Sequence record: AP018932
Source: Escherichia phage KIT03
Reading direction: 5' to 3' (one strand)
Length of the DNA: 64,000 nt
Shown here: positions 4,317 through 56,187 of the stretch, one piece after another
Layout of the letters: every line of letters begins with the position of its first letter
Numbering within the stretch: the first letter of the stretch is position 1
Position numbers and translations under genes: made by a program
The notes under the pieces: model-generated
Databases searched by the model: none
What the model was told of the DNA's origin: nothing
Seen by the model: only the letters and a program-made list of their open reading frames with translations

Positions 4317-4334
4317 AAAGGCCCGAAGGCCTTT
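4317..4334 (-). terminator. stable hairpin, UUCG tetraloop in mRNA (7-bp stem)
   Basis: plus aaaggcc-cgaa-ggccttt; immediately after stop of upstream ORF. Confidence 0.55.
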
Positions 4335-15174: not shown

Positions 15175-15197
15175 AAAGGAACCCCGAAGGATTCCTT
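15175..15197 (-). terminator. hairpin with UUCG loop directly after soc stop
   Basis: plus aaggaa-ccccgaagga-ttcctt. Confidence 0.5.
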
Positions 15198-21144: not shown

Positions 21145-21507
21145 TTAAAAGAATTTAAATTTTTTCTTTGACCTTTTATTAAATGCATCTTGTAATTGCA
21201 TTGTAATACATTTTTCTACATGAGGAGCTAACTCAGCTTTTCTTTCTTGGTCAAGAACAGCAAAGTCCATTACGACTTTTCCATCAACCCAATTTAATTT
21301 TGTCACATACACAATGTGTGTAGAACCATCTTCTAGTTTAATGACAATCTCCTGGATAACATTTTCCATGGCAGATTTAATTATCTTAAGAGACTCATTA
21401 AAAAGACGTTCTTTTCTTTCTTCTTCCCCCTCCGAAGAGGGGGATTCATCGATAATTTCTAGATCTAAATCTAAATCATCTTTATTCATTAAATTCTTCC
21501 ATATCAC
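21145..21507 (-). CDS. 40: gp40-like protein
   Basis: about 115-120 aa ORF between 41 and uvsX; start may be an internal Met. Confidence 0.55.
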   Translation of the reverse strand: MIWKNLMNKDDLDLDLEIIDESPSSEGEEERKERLFNESLKIIKSAMENVIQEIVIKLEDGSTHIVYVTKLNWVDGKVVMDFAVLDQERKAELAPHVEKCITMQLQDAFNKRSKKKFKFF

Positions 21508-28297: not shown

Positions 28298-28315
28298 AAG
28301 GGGCCGAAGCCCCTT
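28298..28315 (-). terminator. hairpin with UUCG loop between regA and gene 43
   Basis: plus aaggggc-cgaa-gcccctt. Confidence 0.55.
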
Positions 28316-30227: not shown

Positions 30228-30246
30228 GTTTTAGTGTAAATTATAA

Positions 30247-30260
30247 AGGGCCGAAGCCCT
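30247..30260 (-). terminator. short hairpin with UUCG loop between genes 45 and 44
   Basis: plus agggc-cgaa-gccct. Confidence 0.45.
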
Positions 30261-30263
30261 CTA

Positions 30264-30950
30264 TTAAAAATCGTGGGTAGAATCAGCTTCAAGAGCTACT
30301 ACATAATTCGCATGTTCACCTTCAAATTTAGCAGCGCCTTGTTTACCTTTTGCCCAGAGCAGAAGTTTATAATTTCCTGGTTGCATTTTCATATTTGCCA
30401 TATTGATAATGAAATTAAATGTATTTTCACCATCATAATCACCAAGAGTCAAAGAATATTTAACACGGGTCAGAGCAGAATCTTCTACTTTATTAAAACC
30501 GTTAATTACGATTTTACCTTCTTTTACCGTGATAGCAATTGTATCAATTTGCAGACCACGAGATACACGCAACAGTTGTTGAAGGTCTTCAGCTTTAATT
30601 TCAGTAACAACAGATGCTACCGGGAATGGAATTGGTTTATTAGGAGCAACTACTGTACTCGGATCGGCTGCTGGCCAAAAAATTGTTGAACGAGCATCAG
30701 CAATTTTAATATTTCCATCTTCTGACTGGGAAATTTCTGCATCATCATTAACTAGAGACAGAATACCGAGAAAACCGTTCAAATCGTAAATTGCTACATC
30801 AAAATCAATAACGTCAGAAATATTTGCTTCCGCATAAGTTGTACCATTAACTGCGCGAGTCATAATAAATTGACCGGATTTAAGCATAATACCGGAGTTA
30901 ATAGTAGCGAAATTTTTAAGCAGAGCAGTAGTATCTTTAGACAGTTTCAT
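30264..30950 (-). CDS. 45: sliding clamp gp45
   Basis: 228 aa equals recalled T4 gp45 length. Confidence 0.9.
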   Translation of the reverse strand: MKLSKDTTALLKNFATINSGIMLKSGQFIMTRAVNGTTYAEANISDVIDFDVAIYDLNGFLGILSLVNDDAEISQSEDGNIKIADARSTIFWPAADPSTVVAPNKPIPFPVASVVTEIKAEDLQQLLRVSRGLQIDTIAITVKEGKIVINGFNKVEDSALTRVKYSLTLGDYDGENTFNFIINMANMKMQPGNYKLLLWAKGKQGAAKFEGEHANYVVALEADSTHDF

Positions 30951-35801: not shown

Positions 35802-35824
35802 TATATCAAACTCCGTATAAAGCT

Positions 35825-35842
35825 AAAGGGCCGAAGCCCTTT
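35825..35842 (-). terminator. hairpin with UUCG loop at a-gt stop
   Basis: plus aaagggc-cgaa-gcccttt. Confidence 0.55.
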
Positions 35843-37043
35843 ATTTTGTAATAATGTCAAACTGTTCTTTAAAGCAGAAGCTTGAATCTTGATGCTGATA
35901 CAAAAATTCATAAGCTTTTTCACGTTCGCGGTCATAAAGAGTTCGGTCAGATGACAGTTCTTTAATACGTTCAAATGTTGATTCCATGTCATTTTCATCA
36001 AACCAAATGATACCGCTATCATGCGAGGTCAAAGGAGTATTATCAACACGGAATTTTAAATTTTCGCCAGTAGATTTCCAAAATACCGGAATTGTTCCAC
36101 ATGCACCAAGCTCGAGATGAGTATATTCTAAAGAACGTTGTAGATATTTTTTATCCAACTTACTCAACTGATAACCAAAACCGGATTTACTCATACGTTC
36201 AAGCATTTCGCTATTTACATAACGGTCAAGAATTTGCGTTGGCAAATTAGGAGCAATTTTAATTTGGTCTACTTGATGAAGACGATAATACTCGTATGGA
36301 ATTCCTTTTTCTTTAATAGGAATGAACGCTGGAGAACGTTCCAGACCTTCCATAATAGTACTTAGTCCTGCAGGTTTAAGATGTTTTTCGTGAAAATCAA
36401 ACATCTGATAAAAACCTTTCCATGTAGTCGTACGACCAATCCAACGGTTGATATTCATGTTAATTTCAGAAACATCTTTCCAGTAGGTTGATCGAACCTT
36501 CGCAATATCCATAGGAGGCTGAAAGTTATATACGGTCGGTGCTTCTTCAATATCATCAAACAGAGAAACAGTTTCTGGATACCACTCTTTCATCAGAACT
36601 TTATTAAAATCACCATTATCAGAATGGCTAAAAATAACATCAGCTCGACGAACAGTTTCTTCTAATCCCAAATTTCGGCGCAAAGAAAGAGAAGAATGGT
36701 CATGTTGATAAACTACAACACGAACCGAAGGTTTAATGTTATCAATAATTTTTTTATAGTTATTAATAGTGTCTTCTTCTACTGAAGTAGCAGGAACTGA
36801 ATTGATAATTAGAATATCACAATCATTTACCAGCTTAAGTGTTTTATCGTATTCTTTTGCCAATAAAACCGGAATTGAAAATGATTTATAATCATGCGCG
36901 CAATTACGAGTAAATGATTTATCTTTAGCATAAACCAAAGTTACTTCATGACCATTTTTAATAAACCAATCACGCTGCTCGAGAGAAAATTTAGTTACGC
37001 CGCAACCTTCAAGACCTCGAGCCATAAAAATACATACTTTCAT
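35841..37043 (-). CDS. a-gt: alpha-glucosyltransferase
   Basis: 400 aa equals recalled T4 alpha-gt length. Confidence 0.85.
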   Translation of the reverse strand: MKVCIFMARGLEGCGVTKFSLEQRDWFIKNGHEVTLVYAKDKSFTRNCAHDYKSFSIPVLLAKEYDKTLKLVNDCDILIINSVPATSVEEDTINNYKKIIDNIKPSVRVVVYQHDHSSLSLRRNLGLEETVRRADVIFSHSDNGDFNKVLMKEWYPETVSLFDDIEEAPTVYNFQPPMDIAKVRSTYWKDVSEINMNINRWIGRTTTWKGFYQMFDFHEKHLKPAGLSTIMEGLERSPAFIPIKEKGIPYEYYRLHQVDQIKIAPNLPTQILDRYVNSEMLERMSKSGFGYQLSKLDKKYLQRSLEYTHLELGACGTIPVFWKSTGENLKFRVDNTPLTSHDSGIIWFDENDMESTFERIKELSSDRTLYDREREKAYEFLYQHQDSSFCFKEQFDIITK

Positions 37044-37093: not shown

Positions 37094-37113
37094 ATAGGAG
37101 CCGAAGCTCCTAT
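37094..37113 (-). terminator. hairpin with UUCG loop (8-bp stem)
   Basis: plus ataggagc-cgaa-gctcctat. Confidence 0.55.
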
Positions 37114-39464: not shown

Positions 39465-39480
39465 AAGGGCCGAAGCCCTT
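39465..39480 (-). terminator. hairpin with UUCG loop
   Basis: plus aagggc-cgaa-gccctt. Confidence 0.5.
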
Positions 39481-46148: not shown

Positions 46149-47074
46149 TTCAATACCTCAATAGCATTACGTAAACCATTTGCTTTTGCATTAAGAGCTT
46201 TTAACAATTTAGTGTGTTCGGCAATCTGAGCTTCAACTTCAACTAGTCGAGATTTGAGGTATTCACGTTCTTCGCTCAAGTTATCAATCTTTTCTACTTT
46301 AGGCTCTTTTACAACTGTCTTATATGTATTAGGGTTCTTCAGTTTAATTAAAATGCGTGAACTGTATAACATTGAACCATTATCTTCGGTTTCGTCATAC
46401 ATTTCTACTACGTCCATGATTTTTAACATCATGCGGAGTTTATAAGACAACGAACGAATAGTTTTGTTGTGCTTATTAATTTCTTTAGCTGTCATGGTGC
46501 CGAGATTACGTGAGTAATAATAAGGAACCTGGATATTAATTAATACTGATGAACCACCTGGCTTGTGTGTTACTTCATCAGCAATAACCCAATCCTTAAC
46601 ATGAACTGTATTTGTACGGTCATCGCCCGCGGTAAATAGTTTACGAGCATGCTTAAAAAGCATATTCACTTGGTCATTGAATTGACAAGCGAACTTATCA
46701 GCAAATTTAGTTTCAGGAATGGTAGATAACCAATCAGCCAAATGGGTCTTTTTAACATCATTAACAATAGTAAATTCAACCAAATCAGTTATAGATGTCT
46801 CAGATTTAATAAAGCTCGGCTTCATAAAGTTTTTAATGTTATCGCGAGCTACAGTAGAAGATAACATACGAGAACGTTTAAACCATTGAAGCAAATTGCC
46901 CAACGAATGAGAATAAGCGTTTTGAGTATCTTTACAGATATGATTTTCCTGGCCAACATATTGAAGGAAATCACGAAGAATATTATTGATTACTGCTCTG
47001 TGTCCGATCTGATAATTACGGTGTTTAGTAATAAGACTGTCAAAATAATCAATATAATGTTTACGAGTTTTCAT
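46145..47074 (-). CDS. coiled-coil protein, 309 aa, member of a four-gene paralog array
   Basis: starts MKTRKHY; C-terminal heptad-rich region. Confidence 0.6.
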   Translation of the reverse strand: MKTRKHYIDYFDSLITKHRNYQIGHRAVINNILRDFLQYVGQENHICKDTQNAYSHSLGNLLQWFKRSRMLSSTVARDNIKNFMKPSFIKSETSITDLVEFTIVNDVKKTHLADWLSTIPETKFADKFACQFNDQVNMLFKHARKLFTAGDDRTNTVHVKDWVIADEVTHKPGGSSVLINIQVPYYYSRNLGTMTAKEINKHNKTIRSLSYKLRMMLKIMDVVEMYDETEDNGSMLYSSRILIKLKNPNTYKTVVKEPKVEKIDNLSEEREYLKSRLVEVEAQIAEHTKLLKALNAKANGLRNAIEVLK

Positions 47075-51462: not shown

Positions 51463-51551
51463 TTACCAGTTTAATTCTAGTCATCTTTTTGATGGCAGTC
51501 CATATAATCTATTTCTGAACTGCCTTTTTATCTTAGAAGGCCTCTTATGAA

Positions 51552-52520
51552 TTATTTCAGAAGAGTAACCTCAGCGATTTCTTCCCAACCGTTTTTGTCG
51601 GTCATAATAAAGTCAGCAAGATAAAGAGCAGTACGCAGTGAAACATTGCGTAAACGATTAACATTGACTTTCATCCATGATAATGCTTTATAAGTTTCTT
51701 CATCAGAAAGACCGCGCTTTTGCATCATGTCAGTTGAAAGAATAACATCTTCAACCCTGACCATAATTTCTTCATTAGTGTGAACACCCAAATCCAAATA
51801 AACTGAGCGGGACACTAATGCTTGTAAATGTGGAGCAAGTTTAGTACCACGGTCTAATTCGCGGTCAATGTCAACGTTTGTGATAAAAACAATCGTTCCT
51901 TTAAATTCAAACTCACGCTCAATGCCTTTTTCTTCTAAGTAAGAAGATGCAGTGCTCCAGCAGACTTTACGGGTCTCTCCAGTGTCCAGAGCAGCTTTCA
52001 GAAGATTAAGAATGTCCATATCAGAGAAAACATCCACATCATCAATCAAAAGGACAGAATTCTCTTCACGATTATTCCAAAGCTGCTCATAAAGACCAAT
52101 ACCAGAGATTTTACCATTAATGCTTTTATATTCAATGTATCCAATATCATTTGCTTTATTTAAAGCTTTATCTAAAGAATACGTTTTACCAATACCCGCC
52201 GCACCAGAGATAATTAATGAACGAATGTTTCCGTTAATAATACCATTCGTCATCATTCCCATAACATTAAATCTTTTATTAATGCGGGTTTTCATATCTT
52301 CATATGATTCTTTAACTTCTTCAACTTTTACACCATCATATGAAATGTCTGATTTGTAAACCCAAACACCGCGACGTTTACCGTCAATTTCAACAAAAAC
52401 TTTACCATCTCCTTGTGCATCTACTGGGGCATTATCAGGGAACCACTCACCTAAGAGTTCAAAAGTTCCAGAGATTTCTTTGCCAAAGTAGATACCCTTA
52501 TTGATAGTTACAGTTTTCAT
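51552..52520 (-). CDS. P-loop ATPase (AAA-like), about 322 aa
   Basis: Walker A GAAGIGKT, Walker B LLIDDVD; ATG at 52518-52520 after GGAGAATAAA leader. Confidence 0.6.
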   Translation of the reverse strand: MKTVTINKGIYFGKEISGTFELLGEWFPDNAPVDAQGDGKVFVEIDGKRRGVWVYKSDISYDGVKVEEVKESYEDMKTRINKRFNVMGMMTNGIINGNIRSLIISGAAGIGKTYSLDKALNKANDIGYIEYKSINGKISGIGLYEQLWNNREENSVLLIDDVDVFSDMDILNLLKAALDTGETRKVCWSTASSYLEEKGIEREFEFKGTIVFITNVDIDRELDRGTKLAPHLQALVSRSVYLDLGVHTNEEIMVRVEDVILSTDMMQKRGLSDEETYKALSWMKVNVNRLRNVSLRTALYLADFIMTDKNGWEEIAEVTLLK

Positions 52521-52554
52521 TTTATTCTCCAAATCTGTATCAGTTGATAGTTGT

Positions 52555-52584
52555 ATAGTACCATAAAGCTTTATGCTTGTAAAC
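52555..52584 (-). promoter_or_regulatory. T4 early-type promoter in a promoter-stem-loop cassette
   Basis: GTTTAC-n18-TACTAT with TG extension. Confidence 0.6.
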
Positions 52585-52613
52585 AACTTTGTGAAAAATT
52601 TTTGAAATAAAAA

Positions 52614-52633
52614 AGGGAGCCCGAAGGCTCCCT
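52614..52633 (-). terminator. hairpin with UUCG loop (8-bp stem) plus U-tract
   Basis: plus agggagcc-cgaa-ggctccct. Confidence 0.6.
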
Positions 52634-52634
52634 A

Positions 52635-53648
52635 TCATTTATAATAACTTCGATGGTTTTCAAGATAGACCTTCTCAAGGAAGTCATCCCAGAAACCCAT
52701 GTCTACTTTTTGCTGCATACCGTTCTTAGAAGCTTCAGTAGATGCTGCTTCTACTTGATCGACCACATCTTCCAAAAACTCTTGAACTGTTTTAAATGGA
52801 TGTTTACCCAACTTCACGTCGAGAATAAATGGAGCGTCTTGAAGTGGATAAACTAAGTCACCAGTTTTGTAAATTTCCAATAGTTGAAGTCCACCACGAC
52901 AGGCATGGCTCAGAGCTTTCCAGTCAATACCTTCATTGGCTTCGGCCTTACGAGCACGTTCACCATATTCAGCATCTAATTTGTTCAGTGACTGCTTAAG
53001 CTCAATAAGAGAAAGCGTTGTCTGATATTTACGACCCAACACAGTGTAGAACGTTTGTGGACCTGTTTTCTCATGATTATGGAACACCCATTCACAGAAT
53101 TCGTTTTCTGGAAGACGATGCTTAATATCTTCAATTTTAGTGCGACGTTGTCCTTGTGTTCCATCTTCTCGGTAGACATTCCGTTGATCAGGAATTTGAT
53201 TAATTACTTTCAACACATCACGTAATGCAGCTAGACGAGAACCTTTAACACCATATTTAGAAGCTTGCTTGCGAACATATCCTAAATAGGATTTCATGTT
53301 AGTCGTATAAAAACGAGAACGGTTGTCTTGAATAAACTTCCACACATCAGGCAAATCAGATTTAACTACTAGCTCAGGTGGAGTGTGAAGCATATCCAAT
53401 GCTACGGTTTCACCATCTGCTGCTAATTTAAAGAAATACTTAAGACTATACAATTCATGGTCAATATCATCTTTAGTGTTTTTAGATGATGTGTTGTTAG
53501 TGTTTTTACTCATATGCTCTTTAACATTTCCGATAAGAATATCGCGAGCAGGAGGAACAAAAATTTCTTTAAAATCTACATCAGATTCTGGGGTAGAAGT
53601 TCCATAAAGATGACTACCAAAATAGCTTTTCATTACTGTTTTCATCAT
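52635..53648 (-). CDS. predicted nucleotidyltransferase (Pol-beta-like fold), 337 aa
   Basis: N-terminal GS...SDVDF motif (YFGSHLYGTSTPESDVDF). Confidence 0.55.
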   Translation of the reverse strand: MMKTVMKSYFGSHLYGTSTPESDVDFKEIFVPPARDILIGNVKEHMSKNTNNTSSKNTKDDIDHELYSLKYFFKLAADGETVALDMLHTPPELVVKSDLPDVWKFIQDNRSRFYTTNMKSYLGYVRKQASKYGVKGSRLAALRDVLKVINQIPDQRNVYREDGTQGQRRTKIEDIKHRLPENEFCEWVFHNHEKTGPQTFYTVLGRKYQTTLSLIELKQSLNKLDAEYGERARKAEANEGIDWKALSHACRGGLQLLEIYKTGDLVYPLQDAPFILDVKLGKHPFKTVQEFLEDVVDQVEAASTEASKNGMQQKVDMGFWDDFLEKVYLENHRSYYK

Positions 53649-54106
53649 TCAGCCTTATATTCAATAACAGGACATACTTTAGCTTTACGAGCTTTTAAAA
53701 ATTCAACGATAATCGATTTCTTGGGTTGAATAGGAGGTAAACCTTTATTTTTCCTATCAATGTTTTCTACGTGTAAAGCATAATCCTTTTTCCATTTATA
53801 ATCTTTATATTTTTCACGCAAATGTACAGGAATAACAAATGAACTGATAATAAGTAAAACAACCAAAAGCGCAAGTATAAATGCTGATGGAAGCAAAGTC
53901 CATAAACTACCGAAAATAAGCCAACGCTGTAGGCTTTCTGCACAAATAATTGTTAGCCCTACGAGTATAGCACACCCGAAAATAGAAACGAAAAATGTAG
54001 GAATGGCAATAGACCAAAAATATGCGCATAGTGTCTTAGGTCGTTGCCATTCATCGTTAAACAATTTGAATAATTTATAGTGCCAAGAGTTTTCATTAAT
54101 AATCAT
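53645..54106 (-). CDS. membrane protein, 153 aa
   Basis: two long hydrophobic segments. Confidence 0.5.
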   Translation of the reverse strand: MIINENSWHYKLFKLFNDEWQRPKTLCAYFWSIAIPTFFVSIFGCAILVGLTIICAESLQRWLIFGSLWTLLPSAFILALLVVLLIISSFVIPVHLREKYKDYKWKKDYALHVENIDRKNKGLPPIQPKKSIIVEFLKARKAKVCPVIEYKAE

Positions 54107-54108
54107 AA

Positions 54109-54630
54109 TTATCCTTTCATTGAAGGCGTAACGGTTGTTAAATACTTAATCATAGCTTCAGCTTCTGATTTTGATAATGAAATTTCTCCATTGTTTTGAC
54201 GAATAGAAATAAAATCCGGATGACGGTCACCACCAGCTTTTAAAACACACATATAAGTATCAACTTCGCCTTCAATATTTGAAATGATTGAAGCAGTTCC
54301 ACATGAATGTGGTTTTTGATAAATCAATGCAGCTTTTCTTCCACCGTTTGACTGTTCATAAACTTTTAACACATCAAACAAATCGCTTCTTTTATCAATA
54401 GCTAAGATGTTGTTTTCATCTTCAATGTTAAATCCTTCGGATACTTCATAAAGTGTCACCCATAAATCACCTATATCGATAGTAGCATTTCCTTTTCCAC
54501 GACTTTCAAGAATATGACAAATTTTCTTGATTTCGTCATAACTCATTTTAATAATATCATCTCCTTGAATAAGGAAGATGTCATTTTTAAATTCAACACG
54601 AATTAAACCACTTCCACTTGAAATAAACAT
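54109..54630 (-). CDS. hypothetical protein, 173 aa, paralog of next gene
   Basis: C-terminal SEAEAMIKYLTTVTPSMKG resembles DEAIALKTYLDSVIPTMISK. Confidence 0.5.
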   Translation of the reverse strand: MFISSGSGLIRVEFKNDIFLIQGDDIIKMSYDEIKKICHILESRGKGNATIDIGDLWVTLYEVSEGFNIEDENNILAIDKRSDLFDVLKVYEQSNGGRKAALIYQKPHSCGTASIISNIEGEVDTYMCVLKAGGDRHPDFISIRQNNGEISLSKSEAEAMIKYLTTVTPSMKG

Positions 54631-54636
54631 ATTTCC

Positions 54637-55194
54637 TCACTTTGAAATCATAGTTGGAATGACAGAATCAAGATAAGTCTTTAGCGCAATAGCTTCGTCT
54701 TTGGTAAATGTGACAATATGCGATCGAAAATCATCAATTTGACGAATAGTTAAGACATCTCCATCTTCATAACATTTTGATACGTTTAAAACAGTTTCAT
54801 CATTCTGATTGCAAGCGTTAGTAATAATAGCATTGCAATTTTTAAACCATTTTAAACTATGTTTTCTTTCATTAGAATAATAAAAATATTTAATCTTATC
54901 TATAAAACTGTCCCAATGAATAACTGATAGGCATATTGACTCGCTTTCAATATTAAATCCTGGGCATGAAGAATAAAAATGAATTTTATGCTCATCATTA
55001 ATGCTTACAATTTTATCAGTATAAGGATTTTCAATTTGGGTTAAATGAATGATTTCACTAGGCGTAAAATACATCATATCATCTTCTTGCGTCAAACGAT
55101 ACATATTATTTACTTTTTCTATAGCTAATTCACCAAAAAGTGAACTAACTTCTAATACTAATCGTTTCATATTGATTCTCTTCGACTCACTCAC
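54637..55194 (-). CDS. hypothetical protein, 185 aa, paralog of previous gene
   Basis: shared C-terminal motif; probable GTG start with AGGAG RBS. Confidence 0.5.
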   Translation of the reverse strand: MSESKRINMKRLVLEVSSLFGELAIEKVNNMYRLTQEDDMMYFTPSEIIHLTQIENPYTDKIVSINDEHKIHFYSSCPGFNIESESICLSVIHWDSFIDKIKYFYYSNERKHSLKWFKNCNAIITNACNQNDETVLNVSKCYEDGDVLTIRQIDDFRSHIVTFTKDEAIALKTYLDSVIPTMISK

Positions 55195-55361
55195 AATTAC
55201 ATACTCCTTTGAATAATATCAATAATGTTGTTCACCAGATTATAAGTAAACATTGGGTAATTATATTGAATCATCACATACACAACAAACAAAACTTTCA
55301 TTCTCTTCTCCTTGGCAGTTGACAAGATTACTATATCATAACCTTGCCAACTTGTAAACCA

Positions 55362-56120: not shown

Positions 56121-56150
56121 ATAGTATCACAGCTCAAACGGAAAGTAAAC
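56121..56150 (-). promoter_or_regulatory. T4 early-type promoter
   Basis: GTTTAC-n18-TACTAT with TG extension. Confidence 0.55.
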
Positions 56151-56166
56151 CGGTAAAATGAAAAAA

Positions 56167-56182
56167 GTCTCCCGAAGGAGAC
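56167..56182 (-). terminator. hairpin with UUCG loop plus U-tract
   Basis: plus gtctcc-cgaa-ggagac. Confidence 0.55.
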
Positions 56183-56187
56183 TAATG

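Follow-up and report, generated by a model that had tools for sequence, protein, structure and literature searches.

An RlaP-type nucleotidyltransferase and an AAA+ ATPase encoded side by side in the T4-like phage KIT03: probable chance neighbours with separate functions

The closest described relatives of the nucleotidyltransferase considered here are the RlaP proteins, a family of the polymerase beta (Pol-beta) type. Two members from Pseudomonas, PfRlaP and PaRlaP, were reported in a December 2025 preprint to add one or two nucleoside monophosphates (NMP) to the 3'-OH of RNA in vitro, with a preference for Mn2+ and no activity on DNA or protein (PMC12776372). Given a mimic of cleaved tRNA, the bacterial enzyme used the 3' end left by the anticodon break in preference to that of the acceptor; RlaP also labelled full-length tRNA and rRNA and showed little specificity among nucleoside triphosphates (NTPs), the Pseudomonas enzymes raised the aminoacylation of tRNA repaired after nucleotide loss, and it was proposed that RlaP completes tRNA repair (PMC12776372). 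Iyer et al. (2021) had found that RlaP follows RNA ligases in its distribution among jumbo phages, and predicted that it replaces nucleotides removed by RloC and similar nucleases (PMC7824862). NrdC.11 of phage T4 is named in the preprint as a member of the family, in cluster 5, with function unknown (PMC12776372), and the assignment of nrdC.11 to the COG3541 nucleotidyltransferases and of nrdC.10 to the AAA ATPases goes back to Nolan et al. 2006 (PMC1524935). Here we describe the corresponding two genes in Escherichia phage KIT03 (AP018932), a T4-like Tequatrovirus, of which a stretch of 64,000 nucleotides (the window) was analysed.

Our reading of the locus is that nrdC.11 encodes an RlaP-type nucleotidyltransferase that would act on RNA ends in tRNA repair, and that nrdC.10 encodes a separate AAA+ protein of replication or recombination. 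The two would be independent early genes that are neighbours by chance in Tequatrovirus and its near relatives. As a combined account we hold this with moderate confidence, and its parts differ in strength: the analysis shows the family membership, the intact motifs, the layout of the transcription units and the lack of conserved linkage, and from these we infer RNA-end addition by the T4-type enzyme, its target in vivo and any role of the ATPase. Both open reading frames (ORFs) listed in a preliminary description of the locus are present on the minus strand, one of 337 amino acids (aa) with the signature GS...SDVDF and one of 322 aa with Walker A GAAGIGKT and Walker B LLIDDVD (Table 1); the mechanical ORF of nrdC.10 begins at an upstream TTG and thereby reaches into the promoter. 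The gene names, taken from an annotated relative, agree with the correspondence to T4 nrdC.10 and nrdC.11 suggested earlier. The KIT03 genes are orthologues of T4 and T2 nrdC.11 and nrdC.10: KIT03 NrdC.11 is 97% identical to the T2 and 95.8% to the T4 protein, and NrdC.10 is 100% identical to the T2 protein and to the copies of many other phages. The 3.2 kb around both genes is 96-97% identical to many Tequatrovirus genomes (812 records match). Since this region is so well kept across Tequatrovirus, and since the nucleotidyltransferase has homologues in 1562 phage records and the ATPase in 1311, both ORFs are real genes.

The earlier assignment of the 337-aa protein as a Pol-beta-like nucleotidyltransferase was borne out and could be narrowed to a family. 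The Pfam model RlaP (PF10127) matches residues 7-135 of NrdC.11 with a score of 44.1 bits where 23 is required (E = 2.7e-11), and phrog_388 (nucleotidyltransferase) matches with E = 4e-136. PF10127 is recorded for 120 of 120 NrdC.11 homologues among the matches listed, and an environmental homologue of 37% identity also lies above the RlaP cut-off, at 50.5 bits. At 50% identity the subfamily falls into 3443 clusters if E <= 1e-3 is required and into 826 if the limit is E <= 1e-30. The N-terminal sequence, MMKTVMKSYFGSHLYGTSTPESDVDF, carries the GS...SDVDF signature, and among 43 homologues, down to 27% identity, the residues G11, S12, G16, S22, D23, D25, N57, D63, R231, K244, H248, R251 and P268 are invariant. 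The Pol-beta signature is therein complete, with GS at residues 11-12, the DxD pair D23/D25 and a third invariant Asp at D63; R231, K244, H248 and R251 make up a conserved C-terminal motif. By its spacing and conservation D63 is putatively the third metal ligand, a role read from sequence alone because the N-terminal domain of the AlphaFold2 (AF2) model failed and no solved relative was detected by sequence. Searches of the PDB with the NrdC.11 sequence and with the 43-sequence profile gave nothing meaningful in a set that evidently lacked the PfRlaP crystal structure. From these comparisons NrdC.11 very probably belongs to the RlaP family.

By analogy with the bacterial RlaPs, NrdC.11 would be a template-independent RNA 3'-terminal nucleotidyltransferase that adds one or two NMP to an RNA 3'-OH. 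Catalysis would run through D23, D25 and D63 with a divalent metal, for which the bacterial enzymes would predict a preference for Mn2+. Such an enzyme may extend the phage tRNA-repair set of polynucleotide kinase-phosphatase and RNA ligase 1. A host anticodon nuclease of the nucleotide-excising, RloC-like kind would remove a base, NrdC.11 would put one back, and ligation would then give a usable tRNA. We incline, if only slightly, to this restoration of nucleotides, complementing the kinase-phosphatase and the ligase, as the role of NrdC.11 in vivo. The tRNA repair of T4 by Pnk/PseT and Rnl1, which counters PrrC (PMC12776372), belongs to the same phage lineage and has the same proposed purpose; compared with it, NrdC.11 would supply a putative extra step, the restoration of nucleotides, that matters only where the nuclease excises a nucleotide, as RloC does. 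In T4-type genomes nrdC.11 and the Pnk/Rnl1 genes are not clustered.

Set beside the characterised RlaPs, NrdC.11 shares a Pfam score above the gathering threshold, the GS, DxD and third invariant Asp, a predicted layout of an N-terminal nucleotidyltransferase region followed by a helical C-terminal half, and homologues in other phages that are linked to RNA ligase and kinase genes. It differs from them in sequence cluster (5 as against 1a) and in the partial extent of the profile match. Between its DxD pair and third invariant Asp it has a conserved insert peculiar to the subfamily, KNTxDDVD, and it carries a DWKAxSHAxR motif as well. Unlike the characterised enzymes it has no ligase or RtcB beside its gene in KIT03, and its activity is predicted by analogy.

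Gene neighbourhoods of distant homologues (46 viral loci, or 31 lineages at 70% identity) point toward RNA repair. In one lineage (L114-L122) a Zeta/AAA_33 kinase, an HD+AAA_33 kinase (Pnkp-like) and RNA_lig_T4_1 are followed by RlaP, with gaps of 15-492 bp; in the IMG/VR loci L114, L116-L118 and L120-L122 this kinase-ligase-RlaP array lies on a single strand and begins about 3.4 kb upstream of the nucleotidyltransferase. From its gene content the array is a putative compact RNA-repair cassette of these uncultured phages. An Rnl1-type ligase lies 2-4.5 kb from the homologue in three further loci (L086, which is phiM7, L133 and L134). In four separate lineages of IMG/VR contigs (L139, L149, L152 and L153) a gene of the CCA-adding/poly(A)-polymerase family (PF01743) stands 2-121 bp after the RlaP homologue, an adjacency that suggests a paired function in tRNA-end maintenance. 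The enzymes of that family are likewise template-independent Pol-beta-type nucleotidyltransferases on RNA 3' ends; NrdC.11 differs in having no PF01743 match and in belonging to another family, and RlaP adds only one or two nucleotides with little base specificity.

The signals between the two genes of KIT03 separate them. Downstream of nrdC.11 lies a UUCG hairpin with a following U run (dG -17.7 kcal/mol, z = -3.67; 0 of 200 shuffles fold equally well), a predicted terminator that would end the transcription unit holding nrdC.11. Then come a T4 early-type promoter and the ribosome-binding site of nrdC.10. In an alignment of 17 T4-like loci the -35 element, the extended -10 element and the ribosome-binding site of nrdC.10 are kept irrespective of what lies upstream, and the hairpin recurs with compensatory stems (GGGAGCC/GGCTCCC, GGAACC/GGTTCC, GGCC/GGCC, GGGACC/GGTCCC). 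Over the whole window the minus strand has 15 copies of the early-type pattern GTTTAC..TGnTAnnnT and the plus strand 0, and for this reason it is not a chance pattern; a generic sigma-70 scan showed no enrichment (31 sites, against 26.1 +/- 4.4 expected).

The preliminary description had placed each gene behind an early promoter of its own. This holds for nrdC.10 (52584-52555) and fails for nrdC.11: the scan from 55330 to 52584 gave zero early-type or MotA-type promoter patterns, and the ATG of nrdC.11 overlaps the stop codon of the upstream membrane-protein ORF (ATGA, 53648-53645). Because of this overlap we suggest that nrdC.11 is co-transcribed and translationally coupled with that 153-aa ORF. 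The nearest early-type promoter upstream, three ORFs away, probably drives the ORFs 54637-55194, 54109-54630 and 53645-54106 and then nrdC.11. With the hairpin and a promoter between the genes, and with no promoter belonging to nrdC.11 itself, nrdC.11 closes one transcription unit and nrdC.10 opens the next. Nor is the pair bracketed by UUCG hairpins, as had been stated. One such hairpin lies between the genes, the only other one near the locus is upstream at 56183-56166, and none is found there 3' of nrdC.10. Two further sites upstream of nrdC.11 were considered as promoters and rejected, a GTTTAC near 53743 that has no -10 element at usable spacing and a MotA-box-like TGCTTTA near 53780 that has no TAnnnT 11-13 nt downstream.

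The adjacency of the two genes is confined to close relatives, from whichever gene it is viewed. In loci centred on the ATPase, the nucleotidyltransferase lies directly upstream only at an ATPase identity of at least 66% (8 loci, L001 and L005-L011); at 58% identity or less, 72 of 73 loci have no nucleotidyltransferase inside a flank of up to 10 kb, and in the one exception it is 8.5 kb off. In loci centred on the nucleotidyltransferase the ATPase adjoins in 15 of the 22 close and 0 of the 46 distant ones, always at a nucleotidyltransferase identity of at least 67%, and the remaining 7 close loci have no ATPase nearby. The two homologues are 67 kb apart in the KVP40-like Vibrio phage D480. Record counts diverge as well, with 286 nucleotidyltransferases to 149 ATPases among Klebsiella phages and 59 to 121 among Vibrio phages, and several close relatives have 300-860 nt of extra sequence, with ORFs, between the nucleotidyltransferase gene and the hairpin-promoter cassette. 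The genes do not form a conserved two-gene module, either by adjacency across lineages or by co-transcription, and NrdC.10 is probably independent of the nucleotidyltransferase.

NrdC.10 (phrog_1250) has the AAA+ fold in an AF2 model with a predicted local distance difference test (pLDDT) score of 88. A beta-rich N-terminal domain (about residues 1-61) and a long linker helix precede an ASCE core and a helical lid. The core holds Walker A at G106-T113, Walker B at D160/D161, sensor 1 at N215, the Arg finger at R238 (SRS) and sensor 2 at R296; of these positions G106, G109, G111, K112, D160, D161, N215, R238 and R296 are invariant in 41 homologues down to 32% identity. The AAA+ motif set is complete, and NrdC.10 is a member of that class. 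A single-sequence search of the PDB returned only a designed helical protein and no Pfam AAA model reached its cut-off. The profile search of the PDB gave RFC4 as the best match (E = 1.3e-4), followed by Cdc6 and a helicase loader; Foldseek with the model favours ORC/Cdc6, Hda, RFC and RuvB, with MoxR and MCM scoring similarly, and the best NCBIfam model is Hda, far under its cut-off. Comparison by hhalign with the gp44 of KIT03 itself gave 95.7% probability, with SRS aligned to SRC. Zero PADLOC models matched NrdC.10.

The protein resembles the clamp-loader AAA+ proteins (T4 gp44, RFC small subunits) and initiator AAA+ proteins (Cdc6/ORC, DnaA/Hda, helicase loaders) in its AAA+ core and lid, and the clamp loaders also in its aligned Arg finger and sensor 2 Arg. 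It differs from both groups in an identity of only 10-19% and in the extra N-terminal beta domain, itself absent in many homologues; a further difference is a conserved insertion that separates helix 3 from the sensor-1 strand. We know of no gp62-like partner of NrdC.10, and the phage already has gp44/62. Transcribed separately, NrdC.10 may serve DNA replication or recombination as a loader or switch driven by ATP and not act with the nucleotidyltransferase, an assignment that we regard as tentative and, stated so specifically, rather doubtful.

The NrdC.10 family is found in more than 575 IMG/VR stretches in addition to the phage records, and the N-terminal domain is missing from many of the distant homologues. 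In a collection of 185,579 species genomes there were 28 matches, all on contigs of metagenome-assembled genomes (MAGs), and the family is essentially phage-restricted. A search of the distant homologues for cyanophage or pelagiphage carriers in culture gave a Pseudomonas jumbo phage, at 48% identity, as its best match from a cultured phage. Upstream of distant homologues lie genes for a single-stranded DNA-binding protein (gp32-like), UvsX-like and UvsY-like proteins, and in 47 loci a UvsW-like helicase (ResIII, Helicase_C, UvsW_N) follows 1-3 genes downstream. In Roseobacter phage RDJL6 the homologue stands between an exonuclease and DNA polymerase A, and in Vibrio phage V05 between nrdA and a topoisomerase subunit. 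A narrower reading of these neighbourhoods, in which distant T4-like environmental phages encode the ATPase directly before uvsW, would make NrdC.10 an unrecognised, phage-restricted accessory to recombination-dependent replication or repair, such as a loader or regulator working with UvsW and UvsX/UvsY/gp32; the T4 gene would then merely have been relocated beside the RNA-repair nucleotidyltransferase. We think this unlikely in so specific a form. As to the MAG contigs themselves, several with a homologue resemble T4-like phage genomes, complete or in part, that were binned with bacteria or archaea; among them L154 (CAVJPU010000002.1), of 167,038 bp, is evidently a whole phage genome, L155 is a 73-kb contig in a 'Candidatus Nanoarchaeia' MAG, and L156-L181 are further MAG loci.

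The preliminary description had proposed instead that nucleotidyltransferase and ATPase form a pair of the kind found in nucleotide-signalling and counter-defence modules, which contains two separable ideas. One is a two-component system in which the AAA+ protein recruits or remodels a substrate, or regulates the nucleotidyltransferase, and the nucleotidyltransferase modifies that substrate to counter host defence. That both are early genes, adjacent and co-oriented in many T4-like genera (the 8 ATPase-centred loci and 15 of the 22 close nucleotidyltransferase-centred loci), would fit such a system. Against it stand the conserved intrinsic terminator and separate promoter between the genes, the loss of adjacency in all distant lineages, the 67 kb between the genes in D480, the close relatives that have inserted ORFs or no nearby ATPase at all, and the distinct conserved neighbourhood that each gene has elsewhere; we consider it very unlikely. 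The other idea, that the nucleotidyltransferase makes or destroys a signalling nucleotide, as a CD-NTase-like enzyme or against CBASS or Thoeris, seems to us highly improbable. The Pol-beta superfamily does include cGAS and the CD-NTases, a general property of the superfamily, and the catalytic core is all that NrdC.11 has in common with them. The PADLOC defence models, CD-NTases included, gave zero matches to NrdC.11 at E <= 0.1; the specific family is RlaP, whose members modify RNA 3' ends but neither proteins nor DNA and use an RNA acceptor in place of NTP cyclisation. There are no effector or signalling genes near nrdC.11 in KIT03, and in other phages the gene is accompanied by those for RNA ligase, kinase and CCA-adding enzymes, not by signalling effectors.

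A less distant alternative keeps the RNA-end chemistry and changes its purpose, so that the enzyme would rebuild a tRNA 3'-CCA trimmed by host nucleases, or tail host or phage RNAs and so change how stable or functional they are, perhaps offensively in the manner of MenT-type toxins. The labelling of full-length tRNA and rRNA by RlaP and its indifference to the NTP (PMC12776372) speak for this, as do the CCA-adding gene directly after the homologue in four lineages, which points to tRNA 3'-end maintenance, and the only NCBIfam resemblance of NrdC.11, a weak N-terminal one to MntA-type minimal nucleotidyltransferases far under cut-off. The preference of bacterial RlaP for the anticodon-break end over the acceptor end (PMC12776372) argues the other way, the RNA ligase and Pnkp-like genes linked to homologues elsewhere are in keeping with the repair of breaks, and the KIT03 locus has no toxin-antitoxin-like partner gene. 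We judge this alternative improbable, if much less so than a signalling role. For NrdC.10 the corresponding alternative is a chaperone- or unfoldase-type or STAND-type NTPase apart from DNA transactions, for example a MoxR-like remodeller. All Pfam matches of that kind are under cut-off (nSTAND3 reaches 20.3 of the 27.2 bits required, nSTAND5 16.7 of 34), the sequence profiles favour RFC, Cdc6, a helicase loader and gp44, and the neighbourhoods in distant phages consist of replication and recombination genes. This, too, is an unlikely reading.

Several points weigh against tRNA repair by NrdC.11 and against a recombination role of NrdC.10, which remain the readings we prefer. RlaP activity is known from two Pseudomonas enzymes only, of another sequence cluster and from a preprint (PMC12776372), and the Pfam match spans just the N-terminal 129 residues of NrdC.11. 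The structure prediction called for earlier succeeded for the ATPase and not for the nucleotidyltransferase, whose AF2 model, built with 23 close homologues, has a mean pLDDT of 56, with the catalytic domain below 40 and residues 1-97 below 50; the helical C-terminal half alone is moderately confident. Within the 64-kb window no RNA ligase or kinase gene adjoins nrdC.11. The literature on nrdC.10 and nrdC.11, under variants of these names, yields no functional study of either T4 protein. A T4 deletion from nrdC.11 to mobD.3 is viable in the laboratory (PMC9825161), which gives no positive support and fits an accessory, host-dependent role. That both genes have stayed neighbours in Tequatrovirus, Mosigvirus, Karamvirus-like and Acinetobacter T4-like phages alike would be consistent with a functional tie of some kind, and the synteny of NrdC.10 with recombination genes may merely mirror the conserved gene order of T4-like phages.

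Table 1. Features at and around nrdC.11 and nrdC.10 (positions in the window)
Feature	Position	Strand	Description
nrdC.11	52635-53648	minus	337-aa RlaP-family (PF10127) Pol-beta-type nucleotidyltransferase
nrdC.10	51552-52520	minus	322-aa AAA+ ATPase, length counted from ATG
Upstream membrane-protein ORF	53645-54106	minus	153 aa, predicted; phrog_944 match
UUCG hairpin, intrinsic-terminator-like	52614-52633	minus	8-bp GC-rich stem AGGGAGCC-UUCG-GGCUCCCU, then U run 52613-52608
T4 early-type promoter of nrdC.10	52555-52584	minus	GTTTACA-N17-TGgTACTAT, extended TG; pattern scan
Ribosome-binding site of nrdC.10	52521-52530	minus	GGAGAATAAA, directly 5' of the ATG; from sequence, kept in relatives
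Nearest early-type promoter upstream of nrdC.11	55330-55359	minus	GTTTACA-N-TGaTATAGT; three ORFs away
Next upstream cassette	56121-56183	minus	UUCG hairpin 56183-56166 and early-type promoter 56150-56121
Stem between nrdC.10 and nrdC.9	51494-51524	minus	9-bp stem, 13-nt loop, no U run
UUCG hairpins 1-6	4317-4334, 15176-15197, 21425-21444, 28298-28315, 30243-30264, 35824-35843	minus	
UUCG hairpins 7-11	37094-37113, 39465-39480, 46683-46700, 52614-52633, 56166-56183	minus	
Relatives with a variable nrdC.11-nrdC.10 slot			L087, L088, L090, L093, L094, L096-L098, L100, L104, L105, L111

Other features of the region are listed in Table 1. Over the whole window the minus (transcribed) strand carries 11 hairpins that have a UUCG loop and a stem of 6-9 bp, and the plus strand none of such quality; a U run follows only some of them, so that several may be elements of RNA stability or processing and not terminators. 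The cassettes at 56121-56150 and 52555-52584 have an identical 15-mer, TACTATACAACTATC, across the -10 element and start region. Around the stem between nrdC.10 and nrdC.9 an 86-nt stretch folds with z = -2.27. The gap between the nrdC.11 stop and the nrdC.10 promoter varies from 112 to 864 nt, with extra sequence in many relatives, and RB6 and IME537 have an annotated 'site-specific intron-like DNA endonuclease' next to nrdC.10; the slot looks like an insertion hotspot. Upstream of nrdC.11, a 'membrane protein' annotation adjoins the gene also in RB69 and other phages, and the two minus-strand ORFs at 54109-54630 (173 aa) and 54637-55194 (185 aa) are full-length matches to phrog_1502 (E = 2.5e-66 and 9e-81), forming a tandem paralogue pair. 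In the Escherichia phages JSE and FL20 the nucleotidyltransferase match is in two pieces covering 71% of the query at about 45% identity, and nrdC.11 may be truncated or disrupted in RB49-like phages. In GenBank, the genes nrdC.4 to nrdC.11 are widely mislabelled 'thioredoxin', carried over from nrdC; other labels in this group are 'putative HNH homing endonuclease', 'putative DNA polymerase', 'prohead core protein' and 'processivity clamp loader'.

The locus is already known, because both are catalogued T4 genes with domain assignments published in 2006, 2016 and 2021 and with the chemistry of the nucleotidyltransferase family reported in 2025; the word 'uncharacterised', used of these genes in the preliminary description, is outdated for that family (PMC12776372). 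What appears to be unreported in the papers searched is the lineage-specific adjacency of the two genes, the RNA-repair cassettes near distant NrdC.11 homologues and the recombination neighbourhood of distant NrdC.10 homologues, points that refine the annotation and do not amount to a new system. No new module of nucleotide signalling or counter-defence is present at this locus, and a false lead is thereby removed. In its place, NrdC.11 stands as a model-phage member of a family whose chemistry is known in vitro, and since T4 has both the Pnk/Rnl1 pathway and well-defined host anticodon nucleases, the restoration of nucleotides by RlaP in vivo is directly testable there. NrdC.10 represents a widespread, phage-confined family of AAA+ proteins, and its neighbourhood in distant phages hints at where its role may be sought.

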